NCBI RefSeq assembly: GCF_006345805.1
Contig: NW_021832385.1
Coordinates: forward strand, 1-64,000
Direction: 5' to 3'
DNA length: 64,000 nt
From: Octopus sinensis
Lineage: Eukaryota
The position numbers and the translations under genes are program-made. Below, piece after piece: positions 3,955-33,760 of the stretch (within the stretch, counting starts at the first letter, position 1; every line of letters starts with the position of its first letter). The notes beneath the pieces are model-generated. The model was not told where the DNA came from. It was given only the letters and a program-made list of their open reading frames with translations, and ran no database searches.

Positions 3955-4329
3955 AATAACCTTAGCATTTGATTTTTCGATGTCCTTACCCCCAAACTTT
4001 TGTGAGTTGAATTAAGCAAACACTATATATGAGAGAGATTTTCTTTAAGTATTAGAAATAGCTTTAAAAAAGTTTTTTAGCTGCTATTTCTAATGAGTTC
4101 AGTATGCGGCAAAGTAATTATTTTACTAAGCCCTTTTATATAATATATATATATATATATATATATATATATATTATATATTCAATATATACACATATAT
4201 ATAATATATATATATACACACACATACGCATACACACACATATACATATATATACACTACACGCACATACACATGTACATGCGTACCCATACACACACAC
4301 ACACACGCGCGCGCGCATCCATATATACA

Positions 4330-6370
4330 CATAAGTACCAAAAAGCCCTCATTAGACGGACTGATGAGTTCATCAAAAGAATTCGATGGAGATCGTTCTT
4401 CTTCGACCATCCTGATGTAGCATCTACCAGTAATGATAAGTACGGCTTCAAATCAAATAAGGCCCCTCCTACCAACAGCCTACTTGAACCGTTTGAAGAA
4501 GACCTCTTCCTCATGAAAAAAACATCAATTCAGGAGAGTCAACCTACCTTTCCAAACGGAACTGAATGAGAAGCTTTCGAAAATGAAAAGCTCCCAGAAC
4601 CTCCATGTCCCTTCGGACAAGACAAAAAATATTTACGCGGTGACTCCGGATACCTACAACAGACTAGCCGATAACGCCATCACAGCTAAGTACAAGAAAG
4701 TAGACGACGCAGCGCTAACTGAAACCAATTTAGCCGGGAAAGAGATTTCCACCTCCCTTAAAATCGATGACCGAACCGAACCCCTGAGGGTGAAGTCCCC
4801 ACACTTCACCCTGAAAGACCACAAAGACCATTTCGAAAATAAACCGTCGGTCCGTTTGATTAACCCAACCAAGTCTGACATCGGATCCGTCAGCAAGAAG
4901 ATCCTGGACAGGATTTTACCAAAAATGCGTGAAGCTTCACCCCTTCCACTCTGGAATAGGACCTCCGAGGCAATAACCTGGTTCGGGATTTACCTGATAA
5001 AAGCAACACCCGATTCCTACAACTGGATATCGAGGATTACTACGCCTCCATATCGGAGAGCTTGCTGATCGACGCGATTAACTTCGCCAGGAGGTCTTCA
5101 CCGAGGCCGAGCAAGATGTGATCCTCCACGCACGTAAGACTTTTCTTTTCTATGACGGATCCCACTGGATCAACAAAAAATCTGTGACCCCTTCGACGTC
5201 AGCATGGGTGCTAACGACTCTGCTGAAATAAGTGACTAGTGGGCCTTTTCATCCTCCATAGGCTGAAAACCTATTCACAGGCCTCTCCGGTAGTCTTTAC
5301 CGCGATGACGGCCTTTTCGCCCTCCACAAATAAACCCCAGGACCACGGATGGGTTCCGGAAAAATCTTTACACCTTCTTAAAAACTTAGGCCTTAGGATT
5401 ACCTTAGAATCCAACTTAACTAAAGCTAACTTCCTTGATGTCACCCTCGACTTAAAAACCTCACTTATTACCCGTACCACAAACCGAATGAATCCCTTAA
5501 ATATATAGATATTAATCCAACCACCCCCAAAATATATTAGATAACCTAGTAAAAAGTGTCTCAATTAGAATTTCTAGCCTGTCCGCCACGGAAGATATCT
5601 TTAAGGCCGCAGCCCCCTATTACAACGAGGCCCTGGCCCGCAGGCTTCAAAGATAAGATTACCTATACTAGTATAGCCCCACGCCAACCCAGGAAAAATA
5701 GACGAAGACACATTAGCTGGTACAACCGTGAGGTCGCTACACTGTAGAAAAATCTTCTTCACTCTCCTACAGAAACACTTCCCCACCCAACATAAGTACT
5801 ACACTATCCTAAATAAGAACACTATTAGACTCTCCTACTCTACCACGCCCAATCTAGCCAGGAACCTAGCCAACAACAATGTGAAAAACTTAACATATCT
5901 ACTTTTTCCGAGCCCCATCCAACGTCCGATAGCAATTGCAACTGCCCTGATAAAACCACCTGCCCCCTCAACAACAACTGCCTACAGAGGGACCTAGTAT
6001 ATACATGCGAGGTAAGATCAGGCCCTGACGATAAAAGAAAATCCTACATCGAATGACGTCAAACAGCTTTAAGACCCGTTGGTACGCACACACACACTCG
6101 TTCCGGCGACAGGAAAATCCAACCAAACTACCCTCGCCGGCACATCTGGTACCTTAAAAGGAACTCCATCCCCTTCAAGACCAAGTGGAAACTACTACAG
6201 AAGGCGCGCTCGTACACAGGAGGCCATACTGCTGTGACCTCTGCATATCGGAGAGCCTAGAGATCTTGTTCGCCAAAGGCCCTCTCTTAACAAAATCTCA
6301 GAACACTCCCAAATTGTATGCATAAGAAGTATGCGAACTACAAGAACTATAGACCTACCCGGCAACCAGA
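4330..6370 (+). mobile_element. Penelope-like element ORF (RT + C-terminal GIY-YIG endonuclease), frameshifted; possibly Hydra-type clade
   Basis: RT motifs lie across ORFs 4273, 4583 and 5239 (NFLDVTLDL). From ~5933 the DNA reads NCNCPDKTTCPLNNNCLQRDLVYTCEV...SYI.MTSNSFKTRWYAH (Cys linker + GIY-YIG). The N-terminus abuts a CA/TA microsatellite. The clade call is inference. Confidence 0.9.
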
Positions 6371-6444
6371 TTGATGACACCCCCCCCAAATCCCACCGTT
6401 CCCCTAGCACCCCCGATTACCTTTTCTCCTAAGACCTTTCACAT

Positions 6445-7224
6445 ATTGTATGTGCACGCTTGTATATGTGTATCGTATATATGTATAGAAATGTATGGGT
6501 ATAGTAGGAATATACGCATGTATTATGTGTGTGTGTGCGTGTATGTATGTAAAAATATATATATATATATATATATATATATATATATATATATATATAT
6601 ATGTATGTGCGTGTGTGTGTGTGTGTATATATATATGTATAGATGTATGTATGTATATATGTATATATGTGTGTATGCATATGTATGTGTATATGTATGT
6701 GTGTATGTATGTGTATGTATGTATAAAATATTATATAATTAGGGCTTAGTAAAATAAATTACTTTGCCACATACTGAACTTTCTAGAAATAGCAGCCAAA
6801 AAAGTTTTTTAGCCTCTTCCACTACTTAGAGAATATTTTCCCTCAGACATTGTTTACTCATAAAAATAATGGTCCTTTTACATACTGAATACTTGGTGAA
6901 ATTGATTAATAACTAATTAACTTTACCCTCAATTGTTGATATATGTATGTGTGTGTATATATATGTGTGTGTATGTGTATATGTACATGTATGTATATGT
7001 GTATGTATGTATGTATGTATATATATATATATATATATATATATATATATATATATATATATATATGTGTGTGTGTGTGTGTGTGTGTGTATATATGTAT
7101 ATATATATATATATGTATATATATATATATATATAATATATATATATATGTATATTATATATATATATATATATATATATATATATATATATATATATAT
7201 ATATATATATATAATATATTATTA
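6445..7224. repeat. (TA)/(TG) microsatellite blocks
   Basis: Dinucleotide runs, interrupted by 6738-6935. Confidence 0.9.
6738..6935 (-). repeat. Diverged, internally deleted relative of the array A monomer (no hammerhead)
   Basis: agggcttagtaaaataaattactttgccacatactgaac...tagaaatagcagc matches the array A end. catactgaatacttggtgaaattgattaat...ccctcaattgttga matches another part of the monomer in the opposite orientation. Confidence 0.75.
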
Positions 7225-7239
7225 TTATTATATAGAAGG

Positions 7240-7289
7240 AGCTTCTACAGGACTAGAACTGTTTCATTCAAGAGAATCTTCAGGAAGCT
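7240..7289 (-). ncRNA. Type I hammerhead ribozyme, family D
   Basis: Minus strand reads agcttc-CTGAAGA-ttctcttgaat-GAAA-cagttctagtcctg-TA-gaagct. Confidence 0.82.
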
Positions 7290-7575
7290 AGTTAACAAGA
7301 ATTGTATTGGCATTTATACATTTAGGCAGGTTTAACGGGGTGTTGGTGGGGGACTTTTTTGGGGTAGGCATAGCGCAAAATATCATACTTGGGGGAGTGG
7401 TCAAGGAGTCAGTGTTAAATTAGATAGACGTCAAACTAATATCTAATTTAACACTGACTCCTTGACCACTCCCCCAAGTATGATATTTTGCGCTATGCCT
7501 ACCCCCAAAAAGTCCCCCACAACACCCCGTTAAACCTGCCTAAATGTATAAATGCCAATACAATTCTTGTTAACT

Positions 7576-31883: not shown

Positions 31884-31950
31884 ATAGCGAACACGTGTTT
31901 CTGGATCACAAACATAGAAAAAGTAGTTTGAATTCCGTCATCAGCGCTAT
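31884..31950 (-). ncRNA. Type I hammerhead ribozyme, family C
   Basis: Minus strand reads atagcg CTGATGA cgga..caaac...gtttg..tcca GAAA CACGTG TT cgctat; stem I is 6 bp. Confidence 0.85.
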
Positions 31951-32433
31951 ATTCGATAGCTTTACCAAATGCCACCAGCCCTCACTTCTGACCCAGCGAC
32001 ATCAGATAGTGGGGGGAAGTGCGCAGATGTTAAAACTAAGTAACGACTGGGAACGTAAATTTTCCCTCCAAAATCCTGCCATGCGCGCCTTCTGGGTAAT
32101 CGTAATGGAATGAGGATCCCACATGGTAATGCAATAAAATGGTAAATAATTTTCCTGTGGTTTTTCATGTAACCAACAATTATTTACCGGTAAATTTCGG
32201 TATGTAAATACGACAAATTAATTGTCAGGACCTTTGTAAGGTTCAGTAAATAGTAAAGAAAATAAGATGGCTAGCAGCAGGCTATTTCGCCTCATACCGA
32301 AGGAATTAGAAATGGCAGTCAAAGACCGTTTTTTTCCATTTTCTATAAGTGGAGATTCCAAAAACGAAGGCCCTTACGGCTCACATACACAAAACCGGAG
32401 TGGCAAATATACGAAAGCAATCACTTACCGTTA

Positions 32434-32500
32434 ATAGCGAACACGTGTTTCTGGATCACAAACATAGAAAAAGTAGTTTGAATTCCGTCATCAGCGCTAT
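32434..32500 (-). ncRNA. Type I hammerhead ribozyme, family C
   Basis: Identical to 31884-31950. Confidence 0.85.
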
Positions 32501-32983
32501 ATTCGATAGCTTTACCAAATGCCACCAGCCCTCACTTCTGACCCAGCGACATCAGATAGTGGGGGGAAGTGCGCAGATGTTAAAACTAAGTAACGACTGG
32601 GAACGTAAATTTTCCCTCCAAAATCCTGCCATGCGCGCCTTCTGGGTAATCGTAATGGAATGAGGAATCCACATGGTAATGCAATAAACATGGTAAATAA
32701 TTTTCCTGTGGTTTTTCATGTAACCAACAATTATTTACCGATAAATTTCGGTATGTAAATACGACAAATTAATTGTCAGGACCTTTGTAAGGTTCAGTAT
32801 ATAGTAAAGAAAATAAGATGGCTAGCAGCAGGCTATTTCGCCTCATACCGAAGGAATTAGAAATGGCAGTCAAAGACCGTTTTTTCCATTTTCTATAAGT
32901 GGAGATTCCAAAAACGAAGACCCTTACGGCTCACATACACAAAACCGGAGTGGCAAATATACGAAAGCAATCACTTACCGTTA

Positions 32984-33049
32984 ATAGCGAACATTATTTC
33001 TGGATCACTAACATAGAAAAAGTAGTTTGAATTCCGTCATCAGCGCTAT
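32984..33049 (-). ncRNA. Hammerhead, family C, stem III palindrome destroyed
   Basis: Plus strand has gaacattatttc in place of gaacacgtgtttc. Confidence 0.55.
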
Positions 33050-33760
33050 ATTCGATAGCTTTACCAAATGCCACCAGCCCTCACTTCTGACCCAGCGACA
33101 TCAGATAGTGGGGGGAAGTGCGCAGATGTTAAAACTAAGTAACGACTGGGAACGTAAATTTTCCCTCCAAAATCCTGCCATGCGCGCCTTCTGGGTAATC
33201 GTAATGGAATGAGGAATCCACATGGTAATGCAATAAAAATGGTAAATAATTTTCCTGTGGTTTTTCATGTAACCAACAATTATTTACCGGTAAATTTCGG
33301 TATGTAAATACGACAAATTAATTGTCAGGACCTTTGTAAGGTTCAGTAAATAGTAAAGAAAATAAGATGGCTAGCAGCAGGCTATTTCGCCTCATACCGA
33401 AGGAATTAGAAATGGCAGTCAATGACCGTTTTTTCCATTTTCTATAAGTGGAGATTCCAAAAACGAAGGCCCTTACGGCTCACATACACAAAACCGGAGT
33501 GGCAAATATACGAAAGCAATCACTTACCGTTAATAGCGAACACGTGTTATATACGTATATACATATATATAATATATATATATATTATATATATATACAT
33601 ATATATACGTATATACATATATATATATATATTATGATATATATGATATATATATATATATATTATATAATATATATATATATATATTATATATATATAT
33701 ATATTATATATATATATATATATATATATATATATATATGATATATACATATGATATATA

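Follow-up and report, generated by a model that had tools for sequence, protein, structure and literature searches.

Non-coding hammerhead ribozyme repeats of Octopus sinensis share a predicted RNA fold of ~200 nt, which probably docks a borrowed Penelope-type enzyme and sets two sites at which copying starts. The fold was traced from a stretch of 64,000 nt (RefSeq assembly GCF_006345805.1, contig NW_021832385.1, positions 1 to 64,000 of the forward strand; hereafter the window), which contains three tandem arrays lying in (TA)n runs, A (units of 543–550 nt), B (593 nt) and C (549–551 nt), plus a small diverged A-type piece. The units of A, B and C carry CUGAnGA...GAAAC with a palindromic helix III, a predicted type I hammerhead that is likewise present in families G and K, described below, and that corresponds to a form reported to work in dimers (PMC4209133). 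Rfam hammerhead models stayed below threshold on the three arrays, and no open reading frame (ORF) of at least 120 amino acids was found inside them apart from microsatellite read-through. An initial annotation of the window had pointed to a short motif common to the three arrays and had proposed that it is a cis-acting RNA element for recognition or priming by a reverse transcriptase (RT), more conserved than the rest of the monomer. The fold, and two fixed insertion ends within it, termed End1 and End2, were established from the sequence, and from them we infer docking, priming and an enzyme dimer.

Conservation and predicted fold of the shared domain

The motif was found in ribozyme sense in each array where the initial annotation had placed it: in A as AGAAATAGC (4054–4062), CTGCTATTTCTA (4081–4092) and TTCAGTATG (4098–4106), in B at 13204–13212, 13226–13237 and 13240–13248, and in C on the minus strand near 32318. 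The word CTGC[CT][AG]TTTCTA has 14 matches in the window, all of them inside arrays A, A2, B or C. When the 2.72-Gb genome was searched, the pattern CTGCYATTTCTA-N1-7-TTCRGTATG gave 15,622 exact matches and its reversed control none, and a 15-mer was counted 31,368 times (control, 18). The latter figure was rejected as a copy number, since an old dispersed repeat and unassigned sequence account for ~23 of the 100 listed matches.

For comparison of the monomers, 60-nt windows were aligned and scored against 60 dinucleotide shuffles. Only the motif windows stood clearly above this null for A–C (z 10.3) and B–C (z 9.0 and 7.9). To call the arrays otherwise dissimilar goes too far for A–B, where further common blocks appeared (z 8.6 and 5.4 over P2'/P4, parts of the fold described below, with z 4.4 and 3.4 beyond them). 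When whole monomers were profiled by 11-mers against five other lineages, the peak fell on the core, G(A/G)CTGC(T/C)ATTTC, higher than on the hammerhead. The remainder of the monomer aligns worse than the motif, and by these measures the shared domain is the best-conserved stretch of the monomers and has outlasted its surroundings, in agreement with the greater conservation first proposed for the element.

Folding predictions make the motif the 5' third of an RNA domain of ~200 nt that runs ~130 nt past it; the motif is real, but the element extends well beyond it and has its structural core in helix P2 with P3 and P4. The predicted domain comprises the 11-nt core, the long-range helix P2 and the hairpins P3, P5 and P4. 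The usual order is P0, an outer helix that is weak in A, then hairpin P1, P2 enclosing P3 and P5, and finally P4; P3 and P4 are each followed by a CU. TTCRGTATG is the reverse complement of a strand 60–100 nt downstream, and the P2 strands are UUCAGUAUGC/GCAUACUGAA in A and UUCGGUAUGU/ACAUGCCGAA in B. Each array contains a complete internal copy. The copy in A (3491–3693, plus strand) has P1, the core (3535–3548), the P2 5' strand (3554–3563, pairing with 3635–3644), P3, the End1 site, P5, P4 (3650–3683) and the End2 site (~3696), where a contig of sequencing run X1 has a loose end in a TA run (3696). Its minimum free energy has a z-score of −6.3, and it scores 145 bits against our covariance model, of which it is itself a part. 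The copy in B (13189–13382, plus strand) pairs 13240–13249 with 13317–13326 in P2, including one G-U pair (z −5.5), and that in C (32131–32356, minus strand) has an extra hairpin within the P2 loop (z −2.6). The guanine-cytosine (GC) content of complete copies is 0.27–0.37. Single-sequence folding of 24 family representatives gave z-scores between −6.3 and +0.6, of which 21 did not exceed −2.6.

A looser pattern and scans of other loci yielded families G, J, K, I and H. Family G is a hammerhead array with 84 exact matches; J has 1,142 matches, and no complete hammerhead match was obtained for it. The predicted fold is kept in G, J and K with changed helix sequences (P2 strands CUAGUGGG/CUCACUAG in G and UCGGCAUG/CAUGCCGG in J), unconstrained folding of G and J returned the same layout as in A, B and C, and the core directly abuts P2 even in these three families. 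When a covariance model was built from the A/B/C lineage alone, a check that the initial annotation had called for, and was run on loci of this genome, it recovered G (expectation value, E, 2e-5 to 3e-3), K (6e-4) and J (0.012), these E-values being rough, and missed families I and H. At one locus (L073, 1–2775), a head-to-head hammerhead array with a 479-nt unit gave weak matches to the model (E 0.014–0.9).

Pairing was assessed for 43 named pairs in 18 sequences against 500 shuffles, with relatedness uncorrected and two strands fixed by the search pattern. Under these terms, 89.0% of cells were paired compared with 86.0% in the shuffles (0/500), two-sided changes occurred in 26 cells compared with 12.7 (0/500), and controls with a slid register were 36–49% paired. 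RNAalifold, run unaided on 18 sequences, returned only P2, with one pair split between GC (nine) and AU (six). In ribozyme sense, G-U exceeded A-C by 38:8 in P2, P4 and P5 together and by 10:3 in P2, an excess expected under selection on ribozyme-sense RNA. The hairpin AGAAATAGC/GCTATTTCT, described in the initial annotation and here P1, is seen in the A/B/C lineage, but G and J, which are without the AGAAATAGC strand, have no such hairpin; P1 is the weakest helix, its 3' strand being 98% conserved and its 5' strand 75%. Because the two strands of P1 are so unequal, and because the core is paired in A, B and C yet largely unpaired in G and J, the core looks conserved as sequence and would likely act by its sequence, as a protein contact.

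The collinearity of the monomers bears on whether present selection on the fold is needed at all. Given the further A–B blocks and the common order of hammerhead, core, P2 and P4, the monomers are collinear homologues, which, like the inflation of covariation counts by relatedness, is what simple common descent from one ancestral pseudo-long terminal repeat (pLTR) would produce, with the stretch and its ends merely inherited. Descent explains why the families have the domain in common, not why the domain outlasts its surroundings: outside it, A and B are no longer more similar to C than shuffles are, the helix sequences of G, J and K have been replaced and still pair, and the ends track the hairpins. 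We regard this account as largely refuted already and as very improbable.

The old dispersed repeat encountered among the 15-mer matches has the core and a few following letters, and one copy scored E 0.07 with the model. In the copies at L199, L204, L206–L214, L216 and L217, the core and the next few letters are in common with family G, and at L199 and L204 the repeat is arranged in tandem, each ~105-nt unit closing with a helix and a TA/CA run. It is possibly an ancient relative.

Two insertion ends and the start of copying

Insertion ends were surveyed at the loci of the first 100 matches listed on contig C1, which provided 116 motif copies, 53 insertions and 79 terminal copies. Of the terminal copies, 40 stop at End1, 35 at End2 and four at neither, one End1 call (at 6893295) being really an End2 behind an internal TA run. 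The distance from the P2 5' strand to (TA)n is 27–59 nt at End1 and 127–153 nt at End2; End1 lies a median of 12 nt after P3 and its CU (n = 40) and End2 a median of 13 nt after P4 and its CU (n = 34), with positions scattered over 8–22 nt. A TA run follows 77 of the 79 terminal copies, 75 of these at End1 or End2. The position of the motif therefore predicts the insertion ends in 75/79 cases, as the initial annotation had supposed, with the amendment that there are two ends and not one. Among 25 head-to-head insertions, 20 combine End1 with End2, one has End2 twice, none has End1 twice and four could not be classified (20/21, binomial p 1e-5). A short inverted arm was detected in six of 28 apparently single arms, and five of the six use the complementary end. 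The pattern recurs in family G, where 30 loci gave 15 End1, 12 End2 and three other ends and all six classifiable inverted pairs were complementary, and in family J, where all three clean inverted pairs were.

In the window, array A has a left arm (1479–3083, minus strand, ~3 units) with End1 at 1481 and a right arm (3109–4147, plus strand, ~2 units) with End1 at ~4137–4141 followed by (TA)n. The terminal copy of the right arm (4054–4134, plus strand), which holds the motif first described, has P1, the core, the P2 5' strand and P3 with its CU and is cut at End1. Array B is composed of an inverted arm (11505–12662, minus strand) ending at End2 (11505) and a direct arm (12660–14471, plus strand, ~3 units) with End1 at 14469, and array C (31716–33548, minus strand, ~3.4 units) is a single arm with End1 at 31716 and its 5' end within a hammerhead. 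The diverged A-type fragment (6730–6942) is head-to-head, its minus arm (6730–6858) stopping at End1 and its plus arm (6868–6942) at End2. The (TA)n runs noted earlier just after the motif, at 1481/4141, ~6733, 14469 and 31716, were all found again, as was the left arm of B running ~110 nt further (11505). They cannot be counted as four independent events, since 1481 mirrors 4141 in a duplication and the copy at 6738 is cargo of a Hydra-type element. Array B and the 6730–6942 piece obey the pattern of one end per arm; array A has End1 on both arms, and its left arm lies in the mirror duplication, which includes flanking ORF sequence. That duplication (142–2518 and 3109–5481, 96.8%), at the start of the contig, spans a microsatellite and some of the Hydra-type ORF as well as array A and is either a later fold-back event or a long-read or assembly artefact.

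The predicted hammerheads, read from the sequence, lie at 3902–3954 in A (plus strand; CTGATGA at 3906, GAAAC at 3939, palindromic GTAC helix III), at 12999–13101 in B (plus strand; CTGAAGA at 13003, GAAAC at 13086, GTAC palindrome, long helix II) and at 32434–32500 in C (minus strand; CTGATGA at 32494, ACGT palindrome). The hammerhead stands ~120–180 nt upstream and is likely not the start signal; 6/67 insertion 5' ends fall within 15 nt of its cut site, an assignment that is wrong for several families. A second purine-rich box, CACG..GGTGG.A.GGGG, is present in A and B ~240 nt past the core (e.g. 3773–3786), with a weaker counterpart in C. Units diverge by 0–1.2% within each of nine arrays and by 0.5–13.4% between arrays, and the low divergence within arrays would fit circular and multimeric templates alike. 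Contigs from four sequencing runs, whose RNA origin is only a guess, cover family A; three cross the unit junction, and tandem and circle are therefore fitted equally.

These non-coding retrozymes bear the 'tail' on one end that is the mark of Penelope-like elements; the likely role of the domain is therefore to position a borrowed Penelope RT. In the mechanism we favor, the GIY-YIG domain of the enzyme would nick both strands of (TA)n, and each freed DNA end would pair with the AU-rich RNA that immediately follows one of the hairpins and prime copying toward the RNA 5' end. By closing the loop that holds End1, P2 would fix the two sites ~95–105 nt apart; the two complementary DNAs would then join head-to-head, and loss of one would leave a single arm. 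The data support the element as a cis-acting RNA tied to where copying starts, and we infer from the same sequences that an RT recognizes it.

As a multi-way junction whose core is invariant and whose ends are fixed, the domain could also be a further ribozyme or a processing signal, cleaving the transcript at End1 and End2 and so supplying true RNA 3' ends for priming. Such cleavage should act at one bond, and the ends spread over 8–22 nt; array units run through both sites, the domain shows no hammerhead core strands, and the anole element described in PMC11167929 starts internally without a cut. Rfam models gave no matches in the window at gathering score, including those for ribozymes, the selenocysteine insertion sequence (SECIS), small nuclear RNAs and cis-elements, and of the 67 matches obtained over five loci at E ≤ 1 none reached gathering score, most being microRNA models on microsatellites and inverted junctions. 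A SECIS or known ribozyme was accordingly rejected as the identity of the domain, and we give self-cleavage at the two ends hardly any credence.

Penelope-like neighbors and the search for a partner

The ORF nearest to array A is a frameshifted Hydra-type Penelope-like one (4330–6350, plus strand; RWR, DKT and CxCx5C). It belongs to a single Hydra-type element at 4330–10050 with a ~3.4-kb microsatellite-rich 3' untranslated region (UTR), in which the A-type piece at 6730–6942 is cargo; the same piece recurs in L033, L041, L056 and L078. This ORF was rejected as the partner, as its own pLTR (hammerheads at 7582 and 10002) is of a different hammerhead family, has neither motif nor domain and precedes the ORF in 12 further copies. 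Part of that pLTR lies inverted at 7032–7713.

Partner searches were made with Hydra-type, Neptune-type and GIY-YIG protein queries, the best 60–150 of 5,000–33,000 candidates being scored for each. The Hydra-type families named P2, P4, P5, P6, D and E and the L305 group, as well as the Neptune-type N1, L319, L323 and L337 groups, were dismissed for ends without the domain, and 30 GIY-YIG loci held no domain homologue. Model matches at L064, L073, L077, L078, L117 and L369 were read as separate non-coding insertions, L362 being judged by coordinates only, and the ORF beside a motif copy in L122 is another retroelement. Pieces of Penelope ORFs near motif copies are separate insertions, and the arrays themselves have no RT or GIY-YIG ORF. 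In the supplementary consensus file of Craig et al., where line breaks could hide a match, core words matched twice, both times in unrelated contexts. At L027 (plus strand, past 1500), End1 of a motif family is joined by only 'TA' to a truncated Hydra-type pLTR ending at its own End2, a junction made either by nested insertion or by one enzyme switching templates.

Five autonomous families of this genome have two fixed ends each, 60–180 nt apart. Two autonomous Hydra-type families have a hairpin and CU or CCU before End2 without the core, so recognition may rest on shape. The L305 group (Hydra-type, 960 amino acids), with ends ~180 nt apart and the second after a strong hairpin and CU, has the longest tail and the best shape match among the autonomous families.

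Several of our results weigh against a fold that docks the enzyme and sets the ends. The core also occurs in the old dispersed repeat, which shows no visible hammerhead and accounts, with unassigned matches, for the ~23 of 100 listed 15-mer matches mentioned above. Pairs with any two-sided change numbered 8 against 6.0 in shuffles (60/500) and are not above them, and the pair counts that did exceed the shuffles are uncorrected for kinship, with two strands preset in the search pattern. There is no G-U excess in P1 (15:13) or P3 (9:8), four of the 24 representatives fold poorly or otherwise (L007, z −0.3; H, +0.6; L200, −1.9; L221), and duplex energies of cognate and non-cognate strands were noisy, the windows being too wide. 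The domain was absent, by pattern and by model, from the ends of eight Hydra-type and four Neptune-type families, and since autonomous families have two ends without it, two ends do not prove the fold as cause.

With no partner found among the candidates scored, the claim is limited, and an explanation that gives the core a separate job is left standing, although we consider it unlikely. The start signal would then be purely local, with any hairpin, CU and AU-rich stretch able to anneal to nicked TA DNA, and the core and P2 would be kept for another reason, as an internal promoter read as DNA or for RNA stability or export. Conservation of the core on one strand only, whether paired or not, would suit such a division, as would its presence in the older dispersed repeat, the two Hydra-type families with hairpin and CU or CCU but no core, and the internal promoters contained in Penelope pLTRs (PMC8557442). 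It sits poorly with a P2 that encloses End1 in every folded lineage and a core flush against P2 even in G, J and K, and the ribozyme-sense G-U excess in P2 would be needless for a DNA element.

The remainder of the window includes two further Hydra-type elements, D and E (24337–26971 and 47769–52751), each flanked on both sides by copies of a hammerhead pLTR of its own. In Neptune-type 3' UTRs (L111, L113 and L323; 45800–47650 of the window, minus strand), GAAAC with a palindrome was seen and no CUGAnGA half upstream of it, and this hammerhead may be broken or rearranged. An AT-rich satellite with 60–307-nt periods occupies 14959–16649, a 443-nt tandem pair lies at 57146–58044, and a transposase remnant, mariner-like by its motifs, is present at 43119–44188.

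Relation to known systems

Like metazoan non-LTR retrozymes, the repeats are non-coding tandem units of low GC content with a type I hammerhead in each. Their unit size of 460–593 nt is above the 150–450 nt given in PMC7229834 and inside the 51–972 range of 10.64898/2026.07.22.740005, and both sources propose mobilization of retrozymes by Penelope-like elements. The retrozymes described in the available text of 10.64898/2026.07.22.740005 are homologous to pLTRs of known elements, whereas no pLTR homologue was found here. The available text of these two sources mentions neither a conserved RNA domain other than the ribozyme nor fixed ends or their pairing, and no description of the shared domain was found in the papers searched or in Rfam. 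Retrozymes, the Penelope tail and initiation at two sites are already known; the cross-family fold and its core are new here, as is the partner search that came up empty.

The footprint reported for Penelope-like elements with an endonuclease (EN+), especially those of the Hydra clade, combines partial tandems, an inverted arm truncated on its 5' side, a tail on only one of the ends, a (TA)n target and hammerheads (PMC8557442). The octopus repeats reproduce all of these features, with a tail of ~95–105 nt instead of 30–40 nt, no ORF and a tail framed by a conserved fold. For the protein of the anole Poseidon element PAc, reverse transcription from two internal RNA sites that define the tail has been described, along with an AT-rich target cut on both strands, a predicted dimer and dispensable hammerhead cleavage (PMC11167929). 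PAc starts in an AC-rich stem-loop of its own ORF, whereas the two sites here follow two hairpins, in the AU-rich linkers on their 3' side, within a non-coding RNA that would act in trans, on genomic evidence only.

Penelope enzymes are relatives of telomerase, in whose RNA the template boundary element is a helix bound by the RT just 5' of the copied stretch (PMC11206666). The domain similarly has a helix and then the first copied stretch 3' of it; the likeness is an analogy only, with no sequence or Rfam match, and the helix there stops copying, whereas here copying would pass through. It is conceivable, though we hold the idea tentatively, that a scaffold resembling telomerase RNA arose in the repeats themselves and was not taken over from the end of an autonomous element; its two hairpin and CU sites would be offered to the two subunits of a Penelope RT dimer. 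The invariant core would then bind protein, and both nicked target strands would be primed in one event.

The choice of RNA by Penelope-like enzymes, their one-sided tail and the mobilization of retrozymes are stated to be open in the available text of PMC8557442, PMC11167929 and 10.64898/2026.07.22.740005. A non-coding domain of ~200 nt with natural compensatory variants and two mapped start sites would be a ready minimal substrate for these questions and could be used as bait for the partner enzyme. If the idea of such a scaffold is true, Penelope-type enzymes would have in this domain their first defined trans-acting recognition element, with a core old enough to persist in an unrelated-looking dispersed repeat.

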